A DNA stretch of 64,000 nt from positions 82,529 through 146,528 of the forward strand of contig JACPAF010000002.1 of the NCBI GenBank assembly GCA_016180965.1, in the 5' to 3' direction. Origin of the DNA: Candidatus Aenigmatarchaeota archaeon (GTDB lineage: Archaea > Aenigmatarchaeota > Aenigmatarchaeia > JACPZZ01). Positions 948 to 37,736 of the stretch are shown here, piece by piece. Each line of letters opens with the position of its first letter. Positions within the stretch are counted from its first letter, which is position 1. The notes below the pieces were generated by a model. The model was not told where the DNA came from. It made no database searches and saw only the letters and a list, made by a program, of their open reading frames with translations. The position numbers and the translations under genes are program-made.

Positions 948-1403
948 TCAATATAGTGTTTTCCAGAAAACTTCCACGAGACCCGATCCCGTTTTTCCAC
1001 TTTTGATTTGTGCAGGATTTGTTTGCCTGCGACCCAACTGGAAAGGCCTTCTTTCATGATAGAATCCATGCGCTTCCATTGAAGTTTCAGAACCGTTTTG
1101 GTGCAAAGGAATTACGATACTTCTTTCTGGAAATCTCAGCCTGTATCTTCCATCGTTTGATAATTCCATGTAGCCCATCGAAAATCCATGGCCTAAACGA
1201 TCTATTATGGGCTGTGGATTGTGGCGATGAAAATATCTTCCGTGTTCCCATGTTTTTACGAAGCCCGGGGCGATGGAAACTTCGATAGTCAACGGTTCAA
1301 TTTTTCCTTGTCCATAAGTTGTGAAATGTGATTCTTGTCTTTTTTGTCGGTACTCCATAAAACCAGTTCGAAATAACACGGATTTTAAGGATTTATAACG
1401 CAT
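948..1403 (-). CDS. Hypothetical protein, paralogue of 581..937
   Basis: 151-aa ORF with 'LRFPERSIVIPLHQNGS' and 'GSGLVEVFWKTLY', matching its neighbour. His-rich. No recognised domain. Confidence 0.55.
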   Translation of the reverse strand: MRYKSLKSVLFRTGFMEYRQKRQESHFTTYGQGKIEPLTIEVSIAPGFVKTWEHGRYFHRHNPQPIIDRLGHGFSMGYMELSNDGRYRLRFPERSIVIPLHQNGSETSMEAHGFYHERRPFQLGRRQTNPAQIKSGKTGSGLVEVFWKTLY

Positions 1404-1486
1404 TTTACGGGAGAAAGTTTAGTTGAAATCACGTCATTCCAGTAAGCTATTTAAATATAACAGTGCTAAATAAGAGGTGATCAGCA

Positions 1487-2749
1487 ATGGCGAAACCGCA
1501 TATTAACATCATGACATCTGGGCACGTAGACCATGGAAAATCCACTTTGATAGGCCGATTGCTGTTCGATACGGGCGCAATCCGTGAAGACGAGATGCGC
1601 AAGTTGAAAGAAACGGCGACAGAATTAAAAAAAGAAACTTTTGAGTTCGCGTTTGCAATGGATACTTCCAAGGAAGAGCGTGAGCGAGGCGTAACGATAG
1701 ATTTGATGCACAAGCCTTTTGAAACACAGAAGAATTATTTCACGATCATAGATGCACCGGGCCACAGGGACTTTGTAAAGAACATGATTACCGGAGCAAG
1801 CCAAGCTGATGCTGCAATTTTGCTTTGTTCTGCAAAAGAAGGAATTCAGGATCAAACAAGAGAACACGCTTATTTGTTAAAAGTTTTGGGTATAAAGCAG
1901 ATGACTGTCGCAATAAACAAGATGGATGCTGTTGGATACGATGAAGCGAAGTTCAACGCGATAAAATCCGAAGTCACGAAGCTTTTGCAGGGCATTGGTT
2001 ACAAAATTGACGCTGTCCCAATGATTCCGGTTTCCGGTTACATGGGCGATAACGTTGTTAAGAAATCTGATAAGATGCCATGGTACAAAGGGCCGACGTT
2101 ACTTGAATCCTTAGATTCTATCCAGCTTCCTCCTAAACCAATTGACAAGCCGTTGAGATTACCAGTCCAAGATGTTTATGATATCAAGGGTATCGGTATA
2201 GTTCCTGTAGGAAGGATTGAAACAGGTGTAATGAAGCCGGGCGATCAAATCGTTTTCATGCCTTCTGGTACAAAAGCTGAAGTTAAATCGGTTGAAATGC
2301 ACCACAAGCAATTGACGCAAGCGGAACCAGGCGATAACGTCGGTTTCAACGTACGCGGCATATCACGCGACCAAATTAAGCGCGGTGATGTAGTTGGAAG
2401 GCCTGAGAACCCTCCGACTGTTGCAAAGGAATTCACAGCCCAGATAATCATATTGAACCATCCTACTGTCATAACAAAAGGGTACACGCCTGTATTCCAT
2501 TGCCACACAGCACAGATGGCCGGTGAAATATTCGAGATTGTAAAGAAATTGGATCCGAAAACAGGTGCAACGATTGCAGAAAACCCTGATTTGTTAAAGA
2601 CAGGAGATGCTGCGATCGTTAAGATAAGACCTGCGAAACCATTGGTAGTTGAGAAGCAGGCTGATTTCCCGCAATTAGCCAGATTCGCGATCCGCGACAT
2701 GGGCCAGACTGTGGCGGCCGGCGTTGTCATAGACTTGGTCAAGGCTTAA
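1487..2749 (+). CDS. tuf: Elongation factor 1-alpha (aEF-1alpha)
   Basis: GTPase motifs 'GHVDHGKST', 'DAPGH' and 'NKMD' in a full-length 420-aa ORF. 'GAGGTGA' lies 7 nt upstream of the ATG. Confidence 0.97.
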
Positions 2750-2833
2750 TTTTATTTCAAGTTTTTTTGATTAGTTTTTTGGTCGGTTTTTGATGTTTTT
2801 TGGGTATAAATCTTTTTAGGTCATTTTATAAAA

Positions 2834-3172
2834 ATGCCCAAACTAACTACAGAGCAATTAAGAGAACTTTATCCTGTGGCCCAGGTTTACACACCTTTGG
2901 GCGGTTATGATATTCAAAGAACTAGCAGGAGAATAACAGCTTTGGTTGTTGTGGAAGATGAAAGGGGCGGAAGGGATCTCAGGTTTTATAGCTGGCTAAA
3001 AAAAAGAACCGGACAGCAGGATGGGGATGATGAATCGGAAAGCGGAAAAGCCGGTTATCGATGGAAAGTGGATTTGGCGCGAAATTCTGTGGTCCACTGG
3101 AATTTGAGGGAGCTTGCCATACAAGGTAATAGACTTGCCAAAAAATATAATGTAAAAATGGATGATTTTTGA
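2834..3172 (+). CDS. Hypothetical protein (112 aa)
   Basis: Clean ORF in the slot after tuf where rps10 usually sits, but the sequence does not resemble uS10. Confidence 0.45.
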   Translation: MPKLTTEQLRELYPVAQVYTPLGGYDIQRTSRRITALVVVEDERGGRDLRFYSWLKKRTGQQDGDDESESGKAGYRWKVDLARNSVVHWNLRELAIQGNRLAKKYNVKMDDF

Positions 3173-3224
3173 TTTTTTATCGCAGCTTTAAATCTGAACC
3201 AACCGAATTTCTATTTAACATTTG

Positions 3225-3461
3225 CTGAGGTAGCCAAGCTAGGTCCACGGCGCTGGTCTGGAATGTATAGGAACAAGTTGTCCGCGGGAAAGTGGTTTTC
3301 CAAAAGAGAACTATTACAGTTTATCTTCGGATAGATTGTAAACGTATGTTTGCTAGTTTACCGATGTAAACTGCAGCAGTTTTGCCATGCAAAACTTGCT
3401 TTCCTACGGCCAGAGAGCCAGTGTGCGCAAGCACGCGGGGGTTCAAATCCCTCCCTCAGCG
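3225..3461 (+). tRNA. tRNA-Ser (anticodon GGA) with a 151-nt intron at the canonical 37/38 site (about 3265..3415)
   Basis: Acceptor stem GCTGAGG/CCTCAGC. D arm GCC..GGC. Anticodon stem CTGGT/GCCAG with loop CT-GGA-A. Long variable arm GTGC-GCAA-GCAC. T arm GGGGG-TTCAAAT-CCCTC. A central 4-bp helix CTGG/CCAG is flanked by 3-nt bulges AA|T and AG|A. No CCA is encoded. Confidence 0.85.
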
Positions 3462-3556
3462 TTGGAGTAAAACACAAGCGTCCTTACTGCGAAAAGAGAT
3501 GAAAGCGGTGCAAGGAATCGCGCGATTCGATGCACGTATTGTATTAGATGGTAAAA

Positions 3557-4546
3557 TCATCTTACCCATAACCAGGTATTTTTTCCTGTGTCTGCTACAG
3601 AGCAACAGCTGCTATAGACTCCGGAACTGCCTGTACCGCTGCTTATGCCAAACCCTAAAACAGAATCTACTGAGTTGCAATCGTTTTCGTTATTTCCTAG
3701 GTATCCCCATCTCACTTTACGGCTCCCATCGTTGTTGAAGCCTCTTGTGCCACAATTGGATTGGGCTGTTAAACTGAAAACGGCGTCGAATTGGGCTCTT
3801 GTTGGGCCCTCCTGCAAAAACGGACCGCTGAAAAGAGAGAGCGCAGACGTTTTTTGTGCGCCAAATGTGTGAGACAGACAATTCGATGTTGACGTAGTGA
3901 CGCAGCCCCTGATTTCTTGAAATGAAACCGTGTTGAATGATTTGTATTTTGCAGAGTTGGCTGCCAACGTCAAGTCTTCAGGATTTAGTGTGTTGGAGGT
4001 GGTCCAGTAATTGCTTGAATATTTCAGTGTGTTGGACGAGCTCAGGGTTTTCATGATCAATGTCCACCCGCCGTTGGCCATGTCGCAATAAACTTGAAAA
4101 ATGTCGTCCGATGTCGGTGCGATATCGTACAATCCATCCACGGCAGAGCCATCGAGGTTCAAAATGTCTTTGCACGACACACCTATAGGGACTGTTACGG
4201 TCAAAGTCGCGGTGTTGCATATGCTGGATGTGCACAACATTAATTTGTGACTGCCTTTTTCCATAACAGCAATGGGCTTTATCAATGCCGCCTCTCCGGC
4301 TTGTATGCTGCTTGGCATGAGAAGGTTTACGGAGTTCCCGTCCAAAGTCGCTGCAATGCTGGCGACGGCGTTTGTCCCGTCATTCCTTACGATTATCTGG
4401 TTGTTGGCGCTGCCCACAACATTTAACACGTTAGCGGCCTGGCTTGTGAACATCCCGGAAATAAAAACGTAGGTTGTGCCGATTATACCGACCGTGATTA
4501 TCAACAAAAGTGTGATTGCGATAACGGGTGTCACTGCTTTCCTCAT
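3557..4546 (-). CDS. Class-III-signal (archaeal type IV pilin-like) surface protein with an Ig-like domain and a C-terminal fibrinogen-related domain
   Basis: The N-terminus 'MRKAVTPVIAITLLLIITVGIIG' is a prepilin-type signal. 'SCKDIL..DGLYDIAP...FQVYCDMANGGWTLI' matches the fibrinogen C-terminal domain signature. Confidence 0.75.
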   Translation of the reverse strand: MRKAVTPVIAITLLLIITVGIIGTTYVFISGMFTSQAANVLNVVGSANNQIIVRNDGTNAVASIAATLDGNSVNLLMPSSIQAGEAALIKPIAVMEKGSHKLMLCTSSICNTATLTVTVPIGVSCKDILNLDGSAVDGLYDIAPTSDDIFQVYCDMANGGWTLIMKTLSSSNTLKYSSNYWTTSNTLNPEDLTLAANSAKYKSFNTVSFQEIRGCVTTSTSNCLSHTFGAQKTSALSLFSGPFLQEGPTRAQFDAVFSLTAQSNCGTRGFNNDGSRKVRWGYLGNNENDCNSVDSVLGFGISSGTGSSGVYSSCCSVADTGKNTWLWVR

Positions 4547-4686
4547 GAATCAATTTGAATATCGGTGGATAAAAGTTTATGTTCACAATATCCGGAAGCG
4601 TAAAACTCTTGGATGATAATATGATCATGATTCCGGACCGAGGCGAAACTTTAAATAAACTTGTCTACAACTGATCTTTGGTAAAT

Positions 4687-5088
4687 ATGACCATGCCAAA
4701 ATTTAGTGCCAGACTGCCCGATAAAACCGGCGGTTACAAAGTATTGCAAATCTATCAGCGGGGAGAGCCTGTTTTTGTAACTGGCAATTATGATGTTTAT
4801 GCGAGGGACCTGCTTAGAAAATATTATAAAGAGATGGGAATATCACACAAAGAAACGAAGAGCCAATCCGGTCCTATGATGCCAGATATAACTGATACGG
4901 AAGATCAAAGGGTTGCTGGCATGGGGTCTGTTTTTGTGGTACCGAATCTCAAACGGGCCAATTTTGACGGTTTGAGCATTGATTATGATCTGTGGTTGGA
5001 TGAAACCCATTTGAAACAATCAAAAGGATTGTATCCAGGCTGGACTTTCATGCTGCGGGGCAAGAACGGCGTTTATGTTCCGGTCTGA
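4687..5088 (+). CDS. Hypothetical protein (133 aa from the ATG at 4687)
   Basis: The ORF in the track starts at TTG 4678. The ATG at 4687 lies about 30 nt after the TATA-like 'CTTTAAATAAAC' (4647-4658), which suggests a leaderless transcript. Confidence 0.5.
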   Translation: MTMPKFSARLPDKTGGYKVLQIYQRGEPVFVTGNYDVYARDLLRKYYKEMGISHKETKSQSGPMMPDITDTEDQRVAGMGSVFVVPNLKRANFDGLSIDYDLWLDETHLKQSKGLYPGWTFMLRGKNGVYVPV

Positions 5089-9195: not shown

Positions 9196-9675
9196 TCAGG
9201 CGGTCATGAACTCGGCAAACTGCACGACAGGTGTTTTATCGGGGGTTTCACCTATTTTTACGTATTTCAGATCCCTGCTGATTGATATGGTTGGTGGCAA
9301 CCCATCTTCCATGGTTTCCCTTATCCATTTTATCATATCAGTTGAGTCGGAGTACATACCCATTTCAAACTCACAGACATATAGTCCGTTATCCTGCCGT
9401 TCAATAGCAATAAAACTGCCCATGGAAAATCTTGTTTTTTTATTTTCCCGTGTCGAAATTCCAATAATACGTACCATCCTTTTGTCGCGGGATAAATATG
9501 TTCTGCCACCCACCCGCTGCAATTCTGTTTTTATATGGGATAACCCGACACTCATTTCTTCGAACATGCCATTTGCAGTATTTTCATCCGTGTATACATC
9601 CCGGATAGCTGCCGATGGCGTAAATCTACCTTTGTAAATATGGGCTTCCTTATCTTGCATCATTCCCTTAAACAT
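9196..9675 (-). CDS. Hypothetical protein (159 aa)
   Basis: The ORF has balanced composition. No recognised motif. Confidence 0.45.
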   Translation of the reverse strand: MFKGMMQDKEAHIYKGRFTPSAAIRDVYTDENTANGMFEEMSVGLSHIKTELQRVGGRTYLSRDKRMVRIIGISTRENKKTRFSMGSFIAIERQDNGLYVCEFEMGMYSDSTDMIKWIRETMEDGLPPTISISRDLKYVKIGETPDKTPVVQFAEFMTA

Positions 9676-10265: not shown

Positions 10266-11051
10266 TTAATTAAAATAATCGAACTGCCTGTTCTCTCCGA
10301 TTAATGATCTTATTCTGGGGGAATCCGGGAATTCGGCTAACCCGTGCAATGCAACAGCGCCTTTGCAATGGCCGGTCGTGTTTTCGGAGGTTCTTACAAA
10401 CCTGTAAATCGCTAATATTTTGTTTGGTATCGGATTGGTAGTTGTGTATTCCTTGTGGTCCGGCGCCTTTTCCATTCTTCTAGAAAAATCGATGAGCCCC
10501 ATGCGGGTGTTATAGCCATAAGTTATTGCCATTTGGCCGTTGCGTCGTTCGTAGACCATGCCTAAGAATTTGACATCGTCAACGTCCTGACCCGATAAAC
10601 CGGTTTCTTCAGCCAGTTCTTTGTAGAAGGACAATAAAGGAGATTTGACTGTTGGGTTGAAAATTGTGACCGCACCGGCCGGTATGCCTTGGGTCATACC
10701 TGAACTGAATGTTTCGCCCAACTCGCCTACGACTATGCCGTTTTCAGCAATTTTGGGCACACCAATCACACAAAGCGGCGTTATCCCGTCTCCCGGAATG
10801 AATTTTTTAAGCATGGCTAAATTGGTTGCATAATCGATTTCCTCGCATTCTAAAACAAGCCTGTTTCCTTCTTTTCTCATGTTTCGATAGCTGGGCAGCG
10901 GGTCGTTCTTTTTTAATGTTGAGGCTATTTTATCAATTTCGTATTGCCACATTGAGGCAAATTTAATCTTTCCGCCAATGCCCAAAACAACTTCTGTGAC
11001 ATCCGCTCCAGGCAAATACAGGTCTGCTATAGTTTGCGTCATGCGTTCCAT
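10266..11051 (-). CDS. Hypothetical protein with a degenerate Nudix-box-like segment
   Basis: 'KELAEETGL' resembles the REUxEExGU part of the Nudix box, but the upstream Gx5E part is not conserved. Confidence 0.4.
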   Translation of the reverse strand: MERMTQTIADLYLPGADVTEVVLGIGGKIKFASMWQYEIDKIASTLKKNDPLPSYRNMRKEGNRLVLECEEIDYATNLAMLKKFIPGDGITPLCVIGVPKIAENGIVVGELGETFSSGMTQGIPAGAVTIFNPTVKSPLLSFYKELAEETGLSGQDVDDVKFLGMVYERRNGQMAITYGYNTRMGLIDFSRRMEKAPDHKEYTTTNPIPNKILAIYRFVRTSENTTGHCKGAVALHGLAEFPDSPRIRSLIGENRQFDYFN

Positions 11052-11133
11052 TCGGTGCGAACTTATTTAAACTGATTTTTTATCGGAACGGTCTATGAGA
11101 AAGGGTTCTAAACCATGGATGCGAAATAATTGC

Positions 11134-12201
11134 ATGGAACGGATAATCCTACATGTTGATTTGGATGCGTTTTTTGCGGCTTGTGAAGAGCGCGAGGATC
11201 CGAATTTGAAAGGCAAACCGGTGATCATAGGCGCCGACCCGAAAAACGGTTCCGGTCGCGGCGTGGTTAGTACGGCCAATTATGAGGCACGCAAATTTGG
11301 CATAAAGTCTGCGATGCCCATTTCACGCGCATTTAGGCTTTGCCCAGATGGCATTTATCTACGACCTAATTTTTTGATTTATGATAAAGTTTCCGCCAGT
11401 GTTATGAGCATATTGAAGAAAAAAGCGGACAAATTCCAACAAGTTGGTATAGACGAGGCCTTTTTGGACGTGTCTTCGTGCGGAAGCTACGAAAAGGCTG
11501 TTGAAATTGCGAATGAATTGAAATCGGAGATAAAAGAAAAGGAGAAAATTACGGCATCGATAGGCGTTGCGCCGAATAAGATGGTTGCGAAAATCGCGTC
11601 CGACGAGAATAAACCGGACGGAATAACGGTTGTCAAACCGGAAGATGTTAAAAATTTCATTTATCCGAAAAGCGTGCGCAAACTGTGGGGCATAGGACCG
11701 AAAACTGAAATTATTTTGAACGGTATTGGGATAAAAACTATTGAGGATCTTGCAGAGGCGGACCCTAAAAAATTAAAAGATAAACTCGGCAACACGGGGA
11801 ATTATTTCCAATTCCTTGCGCACGGAATCGATGAAAGTCTAGTCGAAGAAGATTACGGGATAAAATCTTTTAACCGTGAACATACATTTGAAGAGGATAC
11901 GAATGACAAAGGCTTGATTTTATCCACAATAAAAATGCTTTCGCACGATTTGTTTGAACAATTGAAATCGGATAAAGCATCGTTCAAAACTGTGACACTG
12001 AAGATACGGTTTTCGAATTTTGAAACTTATACGCGGGCAAAAAGCATTAATTCATTCGCGAACGACGAAAATGAAATAATAACAAACGCTAACAGACTTT
12101 CCGAGGAATTTATAAAAACCGGGCGTAAAATAAGGCTTGTCGGAATACGCGTGTCCAATTTAAAATTTGGCGGTGCGCAAAAGAAATTGTCCAATATTTA
12201 A
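11134..12201 (+). CDS. dinB: Y-family DNA polymerase IV (Dpo4/DinB)
   Basis: 'ILHVDLDAFFAACEEREDPNLKGKPVIIG' and 'SIDEAFLDV'-like 'GIDEAFLDV'. The likely start is 'MERIILHVD' (track ORF starts at 11095). Confidence 0.93.
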   Translation: MERIILHVDLDAFFAACEEREDPNLKGKPVIIGADPKNGSGRGVVSTANYEARKFGIKSAMPISRAFRLCPDGIYLRPNFLIYDKVSASVMSILKKKADKFQQVGIDEAFLDVSSCGSYEKAVEIANELKSEIKEKEKITASIGVAPNKMVAKIASDENKPDGITVVKPEDVKNFIYPKSVRKLWGIGPKTEIILNGIGIKTIEDLAEADPKKLKDKLGNTGNYFQFLAHGIDESLVEEDYGIKSFNREHTFEEDTNDKGLILSTIKMLSHDLFEQLKSDKASFKTVTLKIRFSNFETYTRAKSINSFANDENEIITNANRLSEEFIKTGRKIRLVGIRVSNLKFGGAQKKLSNI

Positions 12202-12238: not shown

Positions 12239-12538
12239 ATGATAAACGAAGAACAGGTTAAATCAGCATTAAAGAATTGCTACGACCCGGAGATACCCAT
12301 TAATATCGTGGATTTGGGCCTTGTTTATGGGATAAAAATAGACGACGAAAACAAAAAAATAAAAATTATTATGACACTCACATCTCCGGGTTGCCCGATG
12401 TATGTGCAGATTTCGGAAGATGTCAAAAGAAAAGTTGAAGAGAACACAACCTACGAAACGACGGTTGAAATGGTCTGGGAACCGAGATGGACACAGGAAA
12501 TGATGAGCGAAGACGCGAAAGCTATGATAGGGTTGTAA
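12239..12538 (+). CDS. DUF59/MIP18-family Fe-S cluster assembly protein
   Basis: 'DPEIPINIVDLGLVY' and 'TLTSPGCPM' are the family's characteristic motifs. Confidence 0.85.
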   Translation: MINEEQVKSALKNCYDPEIPINIVDLGLVYGIKIDDENKKIKIIMTLTSPGCPMYVQISEDVKRKVEENTTYETTVEMVWEPRWTQEMMSEDAKAMIGL

Positions 12539-12830: not shown

Positions 12831-13823
12831 ATGCCAAAAGTGAAATCCCCAAGGAAAGGAAGCTTGGCCTTCAAGCCGAGAAAGAGAGCCAGCCGAATCT
12901 ATCCTGTCATACGATCATGGCCAATTGCCAAGGAAATAAAACCGCTGGGGTTCGCTGGCTACAAGGCCGGTATGACCCATGTAATGGCTATCGATAAACG
13001 TAATAATTCCCCTACGGCCGGACAAACGATACAATTGCCCGTGACCGTGATTGATTGTCCCCCGCTTTTTGTTTTTGGCGTACGCGCTTATTCCCATGAT
13101 TACAACGGATTGAAACCCACGAAAGATCTTTTTTTCAAAACTTTAAACAAAGACCTTTCAAGAAAAATAAAACCCCCAAAAAATTATGACTTTGAAAACA
13201 AACTGAAAGAATTTGAATCATGCAACCCTTCTGATGTAAAATTAATCGTTCATACTTTACCTAACAGATCCGGTCTTGGAAAAAAGAAACCGGAAATATT
13301 TGAAGTCGGAATAGGCGGTTCTGACGTGAAATCTAAGATCGAATACGCAAAACAAATGCTTGGAAAAGAAATTTCCGCGAAGGACATATTCAAAAACGGC
13401 GATTGGGTGGATGCAGTTTCCGTAACTACAGGCAAGGGTTTTGCCGGCACAATCAAAAGGCATGGAGTTAAGATGCTGGATCATAAGGAAGGAAAAAACC
13501 GGAGAGGTATCGGCTCAATGGGACAAAAACGTCCTGGGAAGCTGCGCTGGACGGTTCCGTTGCCCGGCCAGCTTGGTTTCCATTCAAGAACTGAATTGAA
13601 CAAACGCATAATTTTAGTCGGGGACAAAAACACGGCTGTAACGCCCGCAGGCGGTTTTGTCAAATATGGTTTGGTCCCCAACGATTACCTCATCGTGCAG
13701 GGTTCTGTCGCGGGCCCGCGCAAAAGATTAATACGACTGAGATTTTCAGTGAGGCCTCCAGCTCTCAACAGGCCGTTGCCGGAATTAAAATCAATTTCTT
13801 TGGAGAGCAAGCAGGGTGTTTGA
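12831..13823 (+). CDS. rpl3: 50S ribosomal protein uL3
   Basis: 'GFAGYKAGMTHV', 'GKGFAGTIKRHG' and 'GQLGFHSRTE'. Confidence 0.96.
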   Translation: MPKVKSPRKGSLAFKPRKRASRIYPVIRSWPIAKEIKPLGFAGYKAGMTHVMAIDKRNNSPTAGQTIQLPVTVIDCPPLFVFGVRAYSHDYNGLKPTKDLFFKTLNKDLSRKIKPPKNYDFENKLKEFESCNPSDVKLIVHTLPNRSGLGKKKPEIFEVGIGGSDVKSKIEYAKQMLGKEISAKDIFKNGDWVDAVSVTTGKGFAGTIKRHGVKMLDHKEGKNRRGIGSMGQKRPGKLRWTVPLPGQLGFHSRTELNKRIILVGDKNTAVTPAGGFVKYGLVPNDYLIVQGSVAGPRKRLIRLRFSVRPPALNRPLPELKSISLESKQGV

Positions 13824-14620: not shown

Positions 14621-15013
14621 ATGGCTGATGAAAATAAATTACCTGTCAAAGAAGAAAAGAAAACCAAAAAAACTGTTAAGAATGTTAAAAAAACCGAGCA
14701 AAAAACTGCAGTTCAGCCGAAGGAAAATAAACCTACGAGACGATTAACAACTAAAAACGAATGGGATGTTTTATCCCATTCGTTAATGACCGAAAAATCA
14801 ATAGGCCTGATTGAAAAGGAAAATAAGCTTGTGTTCATAGTCAATCTCAAGGCGACTAAACCAGAGATAAAAGGCGCTGTGGAAAAAGCTTTTGATGTCA
14901 GCGTTGACAGTGTAACCACGTCGATAACCAGGAAAGGCCAGAAAAAAGCGTTTGTAAAAATATCACAAGGCCATTCCGCGTCGGAAATAGCGACCAGATT
15001 GGGAATGTTGTAG
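14621..15013 (+). CDS. rpl23: 50S ribosomal protein uL23 with a roughly 45-aa Lys-rich N-terminal extension
   Basis: The core 'LMTEKSIGLIEKENKLVFIVNLKATKPEIKGAVEKAFDV' is preceded by the 'KEEKKTKKTVKNVKKTEQK' tract. Confidence 0.9.
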   Translation: MADENKLPVKEEKKTKKTVKNVKKTEQKTAVQPKENKPTRRLTTKNEWDVLSHSLMTEKSIGLIEKENKLVFIVNLKATKPEIKGAVEKAFDVSVDSVTTSITRKGQKKAFVKISQGHSASEIATRLGML

Positions 15014-15022
15014 GTGTTGTAA

Positions 15023-15736
15023 ATGGGAAAGCGGCAAATCGTGAGGGCGAGAGGAAAAGGTTCGATGAGTTACACGGCTCCATCCCACAATTGGGCGGGT
15101 GTGGTTGAATATCCGCAAATTGAAAATTCACAGGATTTGTCGCAAGCTGTCGTCACGGAATTGATACACGATCCCGGACGAAATGCGCCGTTGGCGAAAG
15201 TTAAATTCAATGACGGAGAGGAAATGCTTGTAATTGCGCCGGAAGGCATCCAGGTCGGCAACACAATATCATGTGGAATAACCGCGCCTGTAATCCCGGG
15301 CAACGTTTTAACATTGTCTGAAATACCGGAACGTACGCTGATTTACGGCATAGAATCAAAACCGGGTTCCGGTCCAAAGTTTTGCAGGTCTTCAGGCTCA
15401 TTTGGCATTGTAGCCGTGCATGATGCGGGGAAGGTTTTTGTACAAATGCCATCAGGCGAGATAAAAGAGTTTAAGCCGTTGTGCAGGGCAACAATAGGCG
15501 TGCCGGCAGGCGGCGGACGCAAAGACAAACCGTTTGTAAAAGGCGGTTCGAAACTTTATTTGATGCGCGCACGCGGTAAATTATTCCCGCGCTCGAAAGG
15601 TGTGGTGATGAATGCTACTGACCACCCGTTCGGCGGTAAAACGAGGCCGGGTCATGCAAAAACCATTTCACGCAACGCGCCTCCGGGGCAAAAGATCGGT
15701 TATATAGCTGCTAGAAGAACAGGAAGGAAGAAGTGA
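15023..15736 (+). CDS. rpl2: 50S ribosomal protein uL2
   Basis: 'GVVMNATDHPFGGKTRPG' and 'RARGKGSMSY'. Confidence 0.96.
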   Translation: MGKRQIVRARGKGSMSYTAPSHNWAGVVEYPQIENSQDLSQAVVTELIHDPGRNAPLAKVKFNDGEEMLVIAPEGIQVGNTISCGITAPVIPGNVLTLSEIPERTLIYGIESKPGSGPKFCRSSGSFGIVAVHDAGKVFVQMPSGEIKEFKPLCRATIGVPAGGGRKDKPFVKGGSKLYLMRARGKLFPRSKGVVMNATDHPFGGKTRPGHAKTISRNAPPGQKIGYIAARRTGRKK

Positions 15737-15740
15737 TGAT

Positions 15741-16115
15741 ATGAGATTGTTCCATTTCACATTGGTTTATGCTGACGGTAAAGGAAGAGAAACAAACCGA
15801 TTTGGAGAGCCGTTTACTGTGGATAAAGACGGTTTGAGAAGGTCACAATCACATCCCGTATGCCTGACGCCTTCGCTTGACCATGCTACTACATATGCAA
15901 CTGATAACAAAGGCAGAAATGCAAAAGCAATTGTATACACGGTCGAAAGCGATGATGTCCCAGACATAAGAAGCGGAAATGTTGTCTGGACAGCGGAATA
16001 TGTTCCCAGGGATGCAATAAAGGACATGATACAAGTTAGAGTTACGCGAGAAACGACGCCCAGAGATATCCAATATCATATAGAAAAAAGCGGAAAATTT
16101 AGAGGCTGGATGTAA
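15741..16115 (+). CDS. Hypothetical 124-aa protein embedded between rpl2 and rps19 (ADP-ribosyltransferase/Tpt1-lobe-like pattern, speculative)
   Basis: The ATG is 4 nt after the rpl2 stop. Its TAA overlaps the rps19 ATG (TAATG). Motifs: 'LFHFT', 'GLRRSQSHPVCLTPSLDHA' and 'NVVWTAEYVP'. Confidence 0.65.
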   Translation: MRLFHFTLVYADGKGRETNRFGEPFTVDKDGLRRSQSHPVCLTPSLDHATTYATDNKGRNAKAIVYTVESDDVPDIRSGNVVWTAEYVPRDAIKDMIQVRVTRETTPRDIQYHIEKSGKFRGWM

Positions 16116-16498
16116 TGGCAAAGAAATTTTTATTCCGCGGGAAAACTTTGGAGGAGTTGCAGGGCATGTCACTGGAAAATTTCTCCATTTTACTTAAATC
16201 GCGGGCTAGGCGCGCGTTGAAACGGGGCCTTACAGAACAGGAAAAAATACTGCTTGAAAATGTGCACAGGGAACCGAACAAGTTCCACAAAACACATTGC
16301 AGGGAAATGGTCATATTGCCTGAAATGGTTGGCAAAAAATTCGGCGTCCACAATGGAAAAGAATTTTTCTCAATAATTATAACTGAAGAAATGCTGGGCC
16401 ACAGGCTTGGTGAATTTTCCCACAGCACAAAAGAGGTCAAACATTCCGCTCCTGGAATAGGTGCAACCAAATCCAGCAAGTACATACCTTTGAAGTGA
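16115..16498 (+). CDS. rps19: 30S ribosomal protein uS19
   Basis: 'GVHNGKEF' and 'GHRLGEFSHSTKEVKHSAPG'. Confidence 0.95.
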   Translation: MAKKFLFRGKTLEELQGMSLENFSILLKSRARRALKRGLTEQEKILLENVHREPNKFHKTHCREMVILPEMVGKKFGVHNGKEFFSIIITEEMLGHRLGEFSHSTKEVKHSAPGIGATKSSKYIPLK

Positions 16499-16503
16499 TC
16501 GTT

Positions 16504-16896
16504 ATGGCAGATGCAAAATACTCAATGGAAATGGATCCGAAAAAATCCGCAAGGGCGTATGGAAGAGCTCTGCGAATATCAACAAAACATGCAATGGAGA
16601 TATGCCATGCGATAAGCGGTAAAAATTTACAAAAATCAAAAACAATGTTGCATAATGTTGCTTCGCTCCAGACTTCGTTGAATGGTAAATTTTACATCAA
16701 TGCCACCAATGAAATGATAAGCTTACTGGAAAGCGCAGAAGCAAATGCTAAGGCAAAAGGACTGGATGTAAATAAAATGATCGTGAAGGCAAATGCAACG
16801 AAAGGTTTCGCTTTCACCAGGCCGCGATCCAGAAGGAAATTGGCGGGCCAGACGGGAAGGATGACAAACGTACAGATAATGTTGAGGTTGGCATAA
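16504..16896 (+). CDS. rpl22: 50S ribosomal protein uL22
   Basis: 'ARAYGRALRISTKHAMEICHAISGK' and operon position. Confidence 0.92.
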   Translation: MADAKYSMEMDPKKSARAYGRALRISTKHAMEICHAISGKNLQKSKTMLHNVASLQTSLNGKFYINATNEMISLLESAEANAKAKGLDVNKMIVKANATKGFAFTRPRSRRKLAGQTGRMTNVQIMLRLA

Positions 16897-17526
16897 ATGA
16901 CAAAGGAAATGAAATTCGTCCAGGAAGGTATAAAATCCGTTTTCATAGAGGAATATCTTAAAAGCCAGTTCTTGCGTGCGGACTATTCGCACATTGAAGT
17001 GAGCAAAACCCCGCTGGGAACAAGGATAATAATCTACGCCAATAGGCCCGGCATAGTGATAGGCCGCGGAGGAGAAAAAATAAAAGCAATCACGGAATAC
17101 CTGCGCGACCATTTCAAACTGGACAATCCGCAACTTGACGTAAAAGAAGTCGATAACCCAGACCAAGATGCACAGATCATATCAAGGCAAATTGCATCTT
17201 CATTGGAACGCGGTTTAAATTACAAGAGGGTCGCCAACATGACAATAAAAAGGGTTATGGACTCAGGTGCGGTCGGAATACAAATCCGCGTATCAGGAAA
17301 ACTTGGCGGTGACAAATCAAGGACTGATAAATTCATGCAAGGTTATTTGCAACATTCCGGCGAAACCGCTGACAGGCTGGTTTCAAAAGGGAAAGCGGAG
17401 GCCCTGTTAAAACCCGGAAAGGTCGGTATCCAAGTCAAAATAATGACTATTAACATAGAACAGGAGATGAAGCTTCAAAAGGAGCAGAAAAAAGCCGCTG
17501 AGGAAAATGCGGATAAAAAAGAGTGA
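16897..17526 (+). CDS. rps3: 30S ribosomal protein uS3
   Basis: KH-domain motif 'RPGIVIGRGGEKIK' and 'GAVGIQIRVSGKLGG'. Confidence 0.95.
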   Translation: MTKEMKFVQEGIKSVFIEEYLKSQFLRADYSHIEVSKTPLGTRIIIYANRPGIVIGRGGEKIKAITEYLRDHFKLDNPQLDVKEVDNPDQDAQIISRQIASSLERGLNYKRVANMTIKRVMDSGAVGIQIRVSGKLGGDKSRTDKFMQGYLQHSGETADRLVSKGKAEALLKPGKVGIQVKIMTINIEQEMKLQKEQKKAAEENADKKE

Positions 17527-17531
17527 TCTTG

Positions 17532-17762
17532 ATGGCCGTAATAAAAACCAAAGATGTTCGTGCGATGAAAACTGAAGAACGTTCAAAGAGGCTGGGCGAG
17601 TTCCGTTTAGAACTGGCGAAATTGAGAGGCAGTTCAGCTGTCGGAGCAAGCATAAAACAACCCGGAAAAATGAAAGAACTCCACAAAGCGATTGCACGCA
17701 TACTTACGATAGACAATGAAGAGAAAATGAAGATTAAGAAAAAAGGAGGACAAGAAGCATAG
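17532..17762 (+). CDS. rpl29: 50S ribosomal protein uL29
   Basis: 'RAMKTEERSKRLGEFRLELAKLR' and operon position. Confidence 0.9.
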   Translation: MAVIKTKDVRAMKTEERSKRLGEFRLELAKLRGSSAVGASIKQPGKMKELHKAIARILTIDNEEKMKIKKKGGQEA

Positions 17763-18065
17763 ATGGCAGACACTTGCCCCAACTGCGGGTTGCCGAGAGA
17801 GTTGTGTGTTTGCGTTGCGATGGGTATCAAAGACCAGCAAATACTGGTGTACCTCGACAAAAGAAGCTACGGGAAAAACGTGACGATCATAGAAGGCGTA
17901 GATGAAAAAAACGCCAAGGATCTTACGAAAACCCTGAAATCGAAGCTCGCCTGCGGCGGGACTTACAAGGATGGACGGATAGAATTGCAGGGGGACCATA
18001 AAAACAAAGTTAAGCCCATGCTTGTCAAGTATGGGTTTAAAGAATCACAAATACAGGTGAAGTGA
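17763..18065 (+). CDS. Translation initiation factor aSUI1 (eIF1 homologue)
   Basis: N-terminal 'CPNCGLPRELCVC', then 'VTIIEGVD' and 'LKSKLACGGTYKDGRIELQGDH'. Confidence 0.92.
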   Translation: MADTCPNCGLPRELCVCVAMGIKDQQILVYLDKRSYGKNVTIIEGVDEKNAKDLTKTLKSKLACGGTYKDGRIELQGDHKNKVKPMLVKYGFKESQIQVK

Positions 18066-18334
18066 TGATCGGCCATTCGAATCTCGTACGCCACGAATTA
18101 ATCGGGCTGAAATGCGAGGCATGTTTGAAAAATAACGATATGATAATAACCGGAAAAATAATAGACGAAACAAGGAACACACTGGTGATGGCAACAGAAA
18201 CGGGAAAAAGAACAATGATAAAGGACAAATACAATTTTGTGTTTCAGCTGCCAGGAACCAGAGTAAAAGTGGATGGAACCGTCTTGATAGGCCGGCCAAA
18301 AGAAAGGGTAAAGAAAAAAATAGAAAAATGGTGA
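18065..18334 (+). CDS. rnp1: RNase P protein component 1 (Rpp29/Pop4)
   Basis: 'HELIGLKCEA', 'GKIIDETRNTLVM' and 'VDGTVLIGRPKERVKK'. The ATG overlaps the SUI1 stop. Confidence 0.88.
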   Translation: MIGHSNLVRHELIGLKCEACLKNNDMIITGKIIDETRNTLVMATETGKRTMIKDKYNFVFQLPGTRVKVDGTVLIGRPKERVKKKIEKW

Positions 18335-18338
18335 TGAT

Positions 18339-18677
18339 ATGAAAACTAAGCAAAATATTGGTGTGGACGCGGAACCGCCAGCTAAAACGTGCGATGATGA
18401 AAAATGCTGCTGGCACGGTTCGTTACCTGTACGCGGGCGTGTATTTGAGGGTAAAGTCATCTCTGACCGGGCATCTAAAACTGTCGTAGTTAAATGGGGT
18501 TACAACAAGCTCATAACAAAATACCAGAGATATGAACGAAGGAATACAACCTTGAGGGCGTACAACCCAGAATGCATCGCAGCAAAAACCGGCGATACTG
18601 TGAAAATCGCGGAATGCAGGCCTTTAAGCAAGACAAAGTCTTTCATAGTTGTTGAGAAATTGGAGGGATCAAAATGA
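18339..18677 (+). CDS. rps17: 30S ribosomal protein uS17
   Basis: 'RGRVFEGKVISDRASKTVVV' and 'GDTVKIAECRPLSKTKSF'. Confidence 0.94.
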   Translation: MKTKQNIGVDAEPPAKTCDDEKCCWHGSLPVRGRVFEGKVISDRASKTVVVKWGYNKLITKYQRYERRNTTLRAYNPECIAAKTGDTVKIAECRPLSKTKSFIVVEKLEGSK

Positions 18678-19072
18678 AAGCAATATCTTCATCCGCATCA
18701 CGCGGAATAAACGTGGATTCGGTGATAAACTGCGCAGACAATTCCGGCGGGAAAACACTGAACGTAATTGCTGTAAAAGTTTACAAAAGCACAAAGCGCA
18801 AAAAGCCCGCTGCTGCGATAGGCGACCTGATTGTGTGCTCAGTGGTAAAAGGCGATGTGAAAAAGAGGCATGAAGTGTGTTTGGCAGTCATAATCAGGCA
18901 AAAAAAAGAATACAGGCGTGCCAATGGGATGAGGATAAAATTTGACGATAATGCGGCGGTCCTTGTTAATGACAGAGGCGAACCAGTCGGGACTGAAATA
19001 AAAGGGCCGGTTGCAAAAGAAGCCGTGGAACGTTTTTCCGCGATCGGGAAAATAGCTTCACAAATTGTTTGA
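18674..19072 (+). CDS. rpl14: 50S ribosomal protein uL14
   Basis: 'NCADNSGGKTL' and 'IRFDDNAAVL'-like 'IKFDDNAAVLV'. Confidence 0.95.
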   Translation: MKAISSSASRGINVDSVINCADNSGGKTLNVIAVKVYKSTKRKKPAAAIGDLIVCSVVKGDVKKRHEVCLAVIIRQKKEYRRANGMRIKFDDNAAVLVNDRGEPVGTEIKGPVAKEAVERFSAIGKIASQIV

Positions 19073-19082
19073 GATGATTTGA

Positions 19083-19448
19083 ATGAAAACTAAAAACCGT
19101 AAAATCCAAAGGAAAATGTCACTTAATGCACCAATACACAAAAAGAAAAAATTGGTAAACGTTGCGTTAAGCAAAGATCTGCGTGTCCAGTTAAAGCGAA
19201 GGTCGTTGGGCATACGCAAAGGCGACCAAGTCCAGATAATAAAAGGAAAATTCAAGGGTACGCAGGGCACGGTTACGGACGTGAACCTTAAAAAGATGAA
19301 AATTTACGTTGATAACGCAAACATAAAAAAGAAAAACGGCTCCCAGGCGCAGGTTCCTGTGGCGGTTGCAAAATTGAGAATAATAAAATTAATTACAGCG
19401 GATAAAAGCAGGCAGAAACTCGTGGAAAACGCGGGTAAAAAGGTGTGA
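19083..19448 (+). CDS. rpl24: 50S ribosomal protein uL24
   Basis: KOW motif 'IRKGDQVQIIKGKFKGTQGTV'. Confidence 0.93.
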   Translation: MKTKNRKIQRKMSLNAPIHKKKKLVNVALSKDLRVQLKRRSLGIRKGDQVQIIKGKFKGTQGTVTDVNLKKMKIYVDNANIKKKNGSQAQVPVAVAKLRIIKLITADKSRQKLVENAGKKV

Positions 19449-37358: not shown

Positions 37359-37736
37359 ATGACTATGAGAATCGAAATAAGAAAAAATGGCGAAAATACG
37401 GGTATACTTATATCGTTCGATATGGATTGTTCCAAATTCGATTCGAACTATGAAAGGAATAAGTTTTTCCGAGGCTTGTACGGTTGGGACCAGGTAATAC
37501 GAAAAAATAACAGCGTTTATCATTATCATCGGGAAGGCGTAATGAACGAGGTCCCGCACATCAAGGTCGACAATTCGGTTTTCATAGTGGCTATGGAAGA
37601 AATGCAACGGATACTGGATTATTTCGGCGAATGGGAAAGTAAGATCCACTGGAAAACTTTCCAAGTGCTCCTGGCTCCGGAAGAGCTGCGTCTACTCGAA
37701 AAGAAGGTCAAAGAGAGCGATTTAAACGAAGAATGA
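37359..37736 (+). CDS. Hypothetical protein (125 aa)
   Basis: ORF only. The alpha/beta pattern could not be assigned to a family. Confidence 0.4.
   Translation: MTMRIEIRKNGENTGILISFDMDCSKFDSNYERNKFFRGLYGWDQVIRKNNSVYHYHREGVMNEVPHIKVDNSVFIVAMEEMQRILDYFGEWESKIHWKTFQVLLAPEELRLLEKKVKESDLNEE

Follow-up and report, generated by a model that had tools for sequence, protein, structure and literature searches.

The rpl2-rps19 junction

The DNA considered here is a stretch of 64 kb (64,000 nucleotides) from an Aenigmatarchaeota genome, called "the window" throughout. It carries a typical archaeal ribosomal-protein cluster, and between rpl2 and rps19 of this cluster lies an additional gene of 124 amino acids (aa), here named ORF-X (ORF, open reading frame). 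Its product is predicted to be a stand-alone domain of the ADP-ribosyltransferase (ART) fold. The gene itself is a lineage-specific accessory gene that is kept by purifying selection.

The cluster runs from rpl3 (12831-13823) via rpl4, rpl23, rpl2, ORF-X, rps19, rpl22, rps3, rpl29, SUI1, Rpp29, rps17, rpl14, rpl24, rps4e, rpl5, rps14, rps8 and rpl6 to rpl32e. The Pfam labels of these genes were taken from an orthologous locus (L047), where Ribosomal_L2_N/C is present on the rpl2 orthologue and Ribosomal_S19 on that of rps19. The L2 protein of the window is 75-97% identical to L2 of metagenome-assembled genomes (MAGs) of Aenigmatarchaeota, and its rps19 is 82-98% identical to that of the related loci L003 to L008. 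The features of the junction are:

15023-15736, plus strand: rpl2 (archaeal L2, 237 aa), from the ORF list; stop codon TGA at 15734-15736
15722-15733, plus strand: purine-rich end of rpl2 (GGAAGGAAGAAG), read from the sequence; a possible Shine-Dalgarno-like element
15737-15740, plus strand: spacer TGAT of 4 nt between the rpl2 stop and the ORF-X start, by direct reading
15741-16115, plus strand: ORF-X, 124 codons plus TAA (16113-16115); predicted stand-alone ART-fold protein
16102-16105, plus strand: GAGG in the last codons of ORF-X, 9 nt 5' of the rps19 ATG; a possible ribosome-binding site of rps19
16113-16117, plus strand: TAATG, by direct reading, in which the ORF-X stop overlaps the rps19 start (the last A of TAA is common to ATG)
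16115-16498, plus strand: rps19 (127 aa), from the ORF list; ATG at 16115-16117

An earlier description of the window, made without any database search and here called the sequence-only reading, had placed ORF-X 4 nt past the rpl2 stop with a TAATG overlap to rps19. Direct reading of the letters bears out this layout, and the peptide that was quoted is exact. The product is deposited at NCBI as MBI2085340.1 (280,827-bp contig of a Candidatus Aenigmarchaeota MAG) and is annotated as hypothetical protein HYT71_02405. The Logan assembly of run SRR12113431 (L049) equals positions 15299-16329 of the window at 100% identity; since this assembly is independent, the arrangement is not an assembly error. 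The G+C content of ORF-X is 42.4%, that of the window 43.2%.

The 3' end of rpl2 deserves attention. In L003 to L006 and in L008 the same purine-rich end stands 7-8 nt upstream of the rps19 ATG; in the window it stands upstream of ORF-X. We infer from its sequence that it has a role in translation initiation.

The family and its selection

An exhaustive phmmer search with ORF-X over 1.84 billion representatives yielded three true stand-alone homologues. Together with one member that was found through the analysis of synteny, the homologues number four in all and are 120-126 aa long:

P0003: 120 aa, 45% identical to ORF-X, found by phmmer
P0004: 126 aa, found by phmmer
P0005: 126 aa, found by phmmer
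L007:3714-4091 (also P0031), from MAG NC_groundwater_903: 125 aa, 58% identical to ORF-X, found through synteny

The family is extremely rare. Among about 15 billion collected proteins, each of the five members forms a cluster by itself, and organism names are attached to only two of them, both groundwater Aenigmatarchaeota. The members are mildly basic (isoelectric point, pI, 8.0-9.1); ORF-X has a mass of about 14 kDa. Invariant in all five are M1, H5, G15, N19, G22, T26, G31, A49, P74, G79, P89, A92, I93, T106, R108, D109 and G122.

The copy in L007 permits a look at selection. Between the window and L007, ORF-X shows a nonsynonymous divergence (dN) of 0.32, a synonymous divergence (dS) of 1.2-1.4 and a dN/dS ratio (omega) of about 0.26, with a bootstrap 95% confidence interval of 0.11-0.46; none of 491 replicates reached 1. 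In the same pair of genomes, rpl2 has an omega of 0.04 and rps19 one of 0.025; dS is 1.4-1.7 for rpl2 and saturated for rps19. ORF-X is under purifying selection, yet evolves much faster than its neighbours.

Further searches did not enlarge the family. A word-indexed protein search returned only ORF-X itself with ORF-X as query and only the known members with the family alignment. Tblastn of phage genomes gave no match, and neither a canonical Tpt1 nor a paralogue of ORF-X was found in the window. Pattern scans of genome, metagenome and viral contigs yielded none either, which is weak evidence, since the pattern T[PG]RD missed the TYRD of the L007 copy in the genome contigs. A metagenome scan with the junction pattern GGNTGGATGTAATGGCNAARAA gave seven loci, all of them chance matches without rpl2, rps19 or ORF-X. 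Four giant proteins (P0002, P0006, P0007 and P0008), which phmmer reported with E-values down to 1e-31, were rejected as artefacts of summed short low-complexity repeats rich in Thr, Ser and Ala. Their case illustrates that whole-sequence E-values mislead for repetitive targets.

Distribution and history of the insertion

A retrieval based on L2 gave 37 rpl2 loci from GTDB species representatives. An ORF-sized gap between rpl2 and rps19 is missing in 35 of them; the exceptions are L007 and L036 only. Among the six closest species representatives, just one (L007) has ORF-X at the junction. The gene is absent in L003, L004, L005, L006 and L008, whose L2 is 83-97% identical to that of the window and whose rps19 starts 7-8 nt past the last sense codon of rpl2. 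The L007 junction is identical to that of the window (GGATGTAATGGCAAAG), also keeps the GAGG before the rps19 ATG, and was confirmed in two independent Logan assemblies.

L003 and the window genome are sisters (L2 97% identical, 100% bootstrap on 3.3 kb, dS about 0.45). By blastn, positions 1-1015 of L003 correspond to 14723-15737 of the window and 1018-4011 to 16114-19110, and the two are otherwise collinear. The difference is a single feature:

15738-16113, plus strand: indel of 376 nt, present in the window and absent from L003 (blastn breakpoints)

No recombination tract was seen around the indel, and the mismatches of L003 are evenly spread. In the tree, L004 and L005 group together with 93.5% support, while the placement of L006 and L007 is not resolved. 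The pattern requires two gains, or else a single gain and then one to three losses, each of them precise. Since ORF-X and rpl2 have similar dS values, a single old insertion with subsequent losses is the favoured history.

The sequence-only reading had held that the locus would be of little interest if the gene were absent from relatives or evolved with dN/dS near 1. The outcome is divided: the gene is under purifying selection (omega 0.26), but its distribution is patchy, and the sister and four further relatives lack it. Judged by its presence in related genomes, ORF-X is not part of the conserved archaeal ribosomal-protein gene set.

The other three members live in varied surroundings. P0005 starts 1 nt after the stop of glmS (TAA A ATG; L001:2764-2770), upstream of a Suf cluster. 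P0004 has unknown genes, a ferredoxin and enolase around it. P0003 is the middle gene of a tight array of three (85 aa, the gene, 39 aa) on a 738-bp contig, a layout similar to that of the window fragment L049; a search for its neighbours by the C-terminus of L2 produced only 22 unrelated L2 fragments. Four of the five members start at most 5 nt after an upstream gene on the same strand, which may reflect compact genomes or may be a typical mode of insertion. Near P0005, just upstream of the SufBD-SufS-NifU cluster, L001:3438-3827 (GCA_053531295.1, JAIYRE010000134.1) encodes a regulator of the Xre/HTH_3 type (HTH, helix-turn-helix) with a Cys-rich C-terminus; it could be a regulator of Suf or a partner of P0005.

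The other exceptional junction, L036:3702-4028 (Candidatus Woesearchaeota CAYJRP010000007.1), contains an ORF of 108 aa. This ORF begins with an ATG that overlaps the stop of rpl2, and rps19 follows 1 nt after the ORF ends. As a distant homologue of ORF-X it was rejected (hhalign probability 0.04%, no Pfam family). It thus seems that the rpl2-rps19 junction repeatedly accepts translationally coupled insertions in DPANN archaea. In two further archaeal genomes the spacer between rpl2 and rps19 is unusually long, at about 95-100 nt (L009:3703-3797 and L012:3736-3830); most of the 37 loci have 7-20 nt there. Neither of the two long spacers fully encloses an ORF of at least 25 aa. The rpl2 of L009 seems to be three codons longer.

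The predicted fold

From a four-sequence alignment, AlphaFold built a model of ORF-X with a predicted local distance difference test score (pLDDT) of 91.6 and a predicted template modelling score (pTM) of 0.85; the five models all scored 84-92. From the single sequence the pLDDT was 44, which is unusable. In Foldseek against the PDB, the top matches of the model were structures of Tpt1 from Aeropyrum pernix (8tg3, 8tg6 and 1wfx), with a probability of 1.0 and query-normalised TM-scores of 0.53-0.55 over 104-110 columns. About 22 of the 25 top PDB matches are chains of the ART fold. After Tpt1 there follow cholera toxin, heat-labile enterotoxin (LT), pertussis S1, EcPltA and entries for TreX and TreTu, two ART toxins of the Rhs type, together with the respective immunity proteins. 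Among predicted viral structures (BFVD), the best matches were small phage proteins of 100-120 aa, some of them annotated as DarT or as PARP catalytic domain. Judged by these matches, the predicted model contains the split beta-sheet core of ARTs.

Profile searches point to the same region. The NCBIfam model NF002013 (RNA 2'-phosphotransferase) matches residues 27-94 with an E-value of 0.038, at positions 110-179 of a profile of 183, and phrog_5470 (RNA 2'-phosphotransferase) matches with a best E-value of 0.0094; each of the two is matched by two of the five members. For hhalign, four Tpt1 sequences served as target, i.e., E. coli KptA taken from the genome and three PDB sequences. The family aligned to these with a probability of 53.5% (E-value 1.3e-4), and to the NAD+ lobe of Tpt1 alone with 58.9% (9.4e-5); the relaxed alignment spans residues 1-95 of ORF-X and covers the whole lobe. 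In Pfam, PF01885 was not reported for ORF-X at E-values up to 10, and no Pfam family was assigned.

With fair confidence, then, ORF-X can be modelled as an ART-fold domain that is nearest to the NAD+ lobe of Tpt1. Just this had been suspected from the letters of the gene, by likeness to E. coli KptA. For the predicted fold the suspicion proved correct, both by Foldseek and by the weak profile matches over the same region. The KptA motifs that it quoted were also compared with the real kptA gene: LYHGT, the stretch of 30 residues and NGVWLTSTVAVEFL are present, in the same order. Equally correct was the remark that the N-terminal RNA lobe is missing: the protein has only 124 aa, and the alignments reach only residues 100-183 or so of Tpt1. 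The sequence-only reading had, finally, staked its functional hypothesis on structural or profile similarity to ART-fold proteins, and such similarity exists.

Residues and segments compared with Tpt1

The catalytic tetrad Arg-His-Arg-Arg of Tpt1 consists of R18, H19 and R68 in the RNA lobe and R121 in the NAD+ lobe (PMC6333775). The H101-G-T103 motif contacts the 2'-OH of the adenosine ribose, helix alpha4 and the loop next to it bind adenine, and R121, R139 and R140 of CthTpt1 cage the phosphates of NAD+ (PMC6333775). On this background, the following parts of ORF-X can be distinguished:

15741-16025, plus strand: ART core, residues 1-95; aligns with the whole NAD+ lobe of Tpt1 (hhalign)
15753-15761, plus strand: H5-F-T7 (H-x-[ST] motif), invariant in five of five members; aligns with the HGT of Tpt1
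15774-15818, plus strand: family-specific segment, residues 12-26 (G15, N19, G22 and T26 invariant); replaces the adenine-binding helix alpha4 of Tpt1
15855-15869, plus strand: strand PVCLT; C41 pairs with the second His of the H-H-h motif of Tpt1 (YVHLS)
15981-15989, plus strand: V-V-W; pairs with the GVW of Tpt1, hydrophobic third position
16026-16112, plus strand: C-terminal extension, residues 96-124, absent in Tpt1; a strand and a helix

The H-x-[T/S] motif reads HFT, HLT, HFT, HGS and HGT across the members and is paired with H105-G-T107 of KptA. The position of the second His is taken by C, Y, C, F and F, respectively. Set against the three positions of the H-H-h signature (H on strand 1, H on strand 2, a hydrophobic residue on strand 5), the family has an invariant His at position 1, C, Y or F instead of His at position 2, and a hydrophobic V or W at position 3. 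At residues 12-26, hhalign places an insertion of 12 residues, and the secondary structure of the model consists of strands there, not of a helix. The C-terminal helix carries the invariant T106-x-R108-D109 (16056-16067).

Of the catalytic tetrad, the first three residues belong to the missing lobe, and the position of the fourth (R121/R125) is S37 in ORF-X, in a column that is not conserved in the family. Without the RNA lobe and the Arg-His-Arg-Arg tetrad, ORF-X cannot be an RNA 2'-phosphotransferase of the Tpt1 type. Judged by its residues, it is not a Tpt1 enzyme and would represent a stand-alone ART-fold family.

Comparison with known ART proteins

Tpt1/KptA (PF01885/NF002013; PDB 1wfx, 8tg3, 6e3a) remains the best structural match. 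Over residues 1-95 strands and helices follow one another in the same order, and HGT with H-x-T, a G-L before strand 2, a helix after strand 2, 'PVILTV' with 'aIVYtV', and GVW with V-W can be aligned. Neither of the two has a catalytic Glu. The differences are equally clear. ORF-X lacks the winged-helix RNA lobe; three of the four tetrad residues are gone and the fourth is S37; the second His has become C, Y or F; the Arg cage is not conserved; alpha4 has given way to a segment about 12 residues longer; and a strand and a helix with T-x-R-D are added at the C-terminus.

DUF952/CC0527, an H-H-h domain of about 110 aa, shares with ORF-X the small size, the likeness to the NAD+ lobe of Tpt1, the HX[S/T] motif and a sporadic occurrence (PMC8120803). 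However, the DUF952 profile (PF06108) did not match any member of the ORF-X family at E-values up to 10, and DUF952 is absent from the top 50 Foldseek matches. Also, DUF952 is bacterial, whereas the ORF-X family is so far named only from Aenigmatarchaeota (two of five members).

With the ART toxins (cholera toxin A1, LT, pertussis S1, TreX, TreTu) and the small phage ART-like proteins ORF-X has the fold in common. The toxins, in contrast, show an R-S-E signature that includes a catalytic Glu; they are bigger than ORF-X or form portions of bigger proteins, and they come with delivery or immunity partners. None of this applies to ORF-X. The anti-CRISPR ART AcrIF11, which comprises about 130 aa, is similar in size to ORF-X. 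Like ORF-X it is a stand-alone accessory ART, with an H-H-D signature (PMC8120803). It is, however, not among the top Foldseek matches, and ORF-X has neither a conserved acidic third position nor a phage or defence context. Of DarTG, ParST, RES-Xre or a PADLOC system there is no sign either: no partner gene adjoins ORF-X, no PADLOC family matches, and an Xre-type gene is found near P0005 only.

What ORF-X may do

The reading we favour, and hold to be rather probable, is that ORF-X is a rare accessory ART-fold gene, probably NAD+- or ADP-ribose-binding, that would be expressed along with the ribosomal proteins. Its product would be a soluble, mildly basic single domain of about 14 kDa like the NAD+ lobe of Tpt1/KptA, supplemented by a family-specific C-terminal helix. 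Having no room for a promoter of its own, the gene would be read from the polycistronic mRNA of the ribosomal proteins. It would take over the purine-rich rpl2 end that serves rps19 in the relatives, and ribosomes would be passed on to rps19 via the internal GAGG and the TAATG overlap. That both elements are conserved in L007 suggests that the translation of rps19 would be kept intact. The operon position as such is most likely a tolerated insertion that gained strong constitutive expression in a compact genome.

As to the activity, binding of NAD+ or ADP-ribose appears most likely from the conserved residues; it may be achieved by the invariant H-x-T, the aromatic or Cys residue of strand 2 and the V-W strand. 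ADP-ribosyl transfer or cleavage of NAD+ by ORF-X is possible.

Several observations weigh against this reading. The fold model is built on four sequences only, and the Foldseek E-values are modest (0.035-0.06). The links to Tpt1 at the level of sequence are each weak: the score for NF002013 is 13.5 bits compared with a curated cut-off of 231; the hhalign probability is only 27.6% if the five-sequence profile is aligned to full-length Tpt1; and searches of PDB sequences with the protein and with the profile found no Tpt1 but only chance matches with E-values above 0.2. The columns of the Arg cage vary (S/A/C and K/R/N/G/H), the second His is not conserved, and the adenine-binding helix is replaced. 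The domain could therefore be non-catalytic or might not bind NAD+ at all. Finally, two lineages keep ORF-X at the exact junction with its coupling intact, which is compatible with a real link to translation.

The residue differences lead to the first alternative, a degenerate ART that has lost its NAD+ chemistry and persists as a small binding or adaptor protein. We consider it rather unlikely. Such a pseudoenzyme would fit the facts that invariance is limited to the first of the three ART signature positions, with C, Y or F in place of the second His, that a catalytic Glu is missing, that E86 and the Arg cage are not conserved, that the adenine helix is replaced by a hairpin, and that the most conserved stretch is the C-terminal T-x-R-D helix, which is not an ART element. 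An aromatic residue at position 2 is, however, the norm in ARTs of the H-Y-E type. The invariance of H-x-[ST] at only 30-58% identity argues for retained ribose binding, in line with the known role of the motif (PMC8120803), and H-H-h ARTs such as Tpt1 and DUF952 do without a catalytic Glu anyway (PMC8120803).

The sequence-only reading had gone further and proposed an ART-fold enzyme or an NAD/ADP-ribose-binding factor that targets the ribosome, a translation factor or RNA and owes its position to co-production with ribosomal proteins. We regard this as unlikely, although its first part, the ART fold with the H-x-T motif, is well compatible with the model. Two diverged lineages have the gene at the same junction with TAATG, and its dS, which is like that of rpl2, suggests long residence; P0003, the closest homologue outside the clade, sits in an equally tight three-gene array; the members are mildly basic (pI 8.0-9.1). 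Moreover, ART toxins that hit the translation machinery are known, and a paper on an Rhs ART toxin describes a tRNA anticodon-loop target. It is the target part of the proposal that suffers. Four of the five other close relatives lack the gene, as does the sister genome; P0005 after glmS and P0004 near enolase and ferredoxin have no translation context; Foldseek revealed no similarity to ribosomal or translation proteins; and the RNA lobe and catalytic residues of Tpt1 are missing or not conserved. A target in translation is possible, with the gene position as its one support. The position is weak evidence of function, since the sister lineage does without the gene, members occur elsewhere, and in a Woesearchaeota genome the junction is filled by an unrelated ORF. 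That ORF-X would be an endogenous archaeal NAD+-dependent modifier, or an NAD+/ADP-ribose sensor, of translation that is made with the ribosomal proteins by translational coupling and ADP-ribosylates or binds a ribosomal protein, rRNA, tRNA or aEF2 is, in our estimate, distinctly improbable.

Still less can be said for an origin in biological conflict, i.e., a small ART toxin, an effector that the episymbiotic archaeon directs at its host, or an AcrIF11-like anti-defence protein whose gene came to lie in the operon by chance. The patchy distribution, the extreme rarity and the varied genomic contexts would suit such an origin, as would an evolution five to ten times faster than that of the flanking genes. 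Small stand-alone ARTs such as AcrIF11 do exist (PMC8120803), the nearest viral structures are small phage ART-like proteins with some DarT or PARP annotations, and a gene of the Xre-type HTH lies 290 nt downstream of P0005. Yet in the window and in L007 the neighbours are ribosomal, and no immunity, antitoxin or hydrolase gene adjoins ORF-X. Pfam reveals no macrodomain, Nudix or other NAD/ADP-ribose partner in ten nearby non-ribosomal ORFs, PADLOC gives no match, and neither tblastn of phage genomes nor the pattern scan of viral contigs revealed a relative. The base composition is that of the host, and a signal peptide is missing. We hold a conflict system to be very unlikely.

A mere chance frame or a fault of assembly, for which only the lack of a Pfam or NCBIfam assignment could be quoted, is practically excluded by the homologues of ORF-X, its omega of 0.26, the confident structure model, the independent assemblies at 100% identity and the absence of an Rfam family.

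Significance

The ART superfamily and stand-alone Tpt1-like domains are, of course, already known. Pfam, NCBIfam, PHROGs and the literature searched contain no description of the ORF-X family, its architecture or its location, and this literature had nothing relevant on insertions at the rpl2-rps19 junction either. If the assignment of the fold is right, ORF-X stands for an undescribed minimal branch of ARTs, namely the NAD+ lobe of Tpt1 without the RNA lobe or the known catalytic residues. It would add another case to the small set of stand-alone ART domains of the H-H-h type such as DUF952. Further, two unrelated examples indicate that in DPANN archaea a junction commonly taken to be invariable is able to acquire and retain translationally coupled accessory genes. 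Rarity and patchy distribution limit the practical significance; a demonstrated ribosomal target would raise the interest. Should ORF-X indeed be a sensor or modifier of translation, it would be a minimal ART that, in a DPANN archaeon with a reduced genome, ties the function of the ribosome to NAD+ status.

Other features of the window

Across the 64-kb window, ARAGORN detected no tRNA gene, and no RNA family of Rfam reached the gathering threshold. For four uncharacterised ORFs of 125-261 aa, Pfam gave no family at E-values up to 0.001: 10266-11051 and 9196-9675 on the minus strand, 37359-37736 and 4678-5088 on the plus strand. Immediately 5' of the ribosomal cluster, the window encodes a Y-family DNA polymerase (IMS/impB, 11095-12201) and then a small FeS_assembly_P protein of the DUF59 type (12239-12538). 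Within the cluster, SUI1 (aIF1, 17763-18065) and the RNase P subunit Rpp29 (18062-18334) are placed between rpl29 and rps17, which is the usual archaeal order and the same as in L047.

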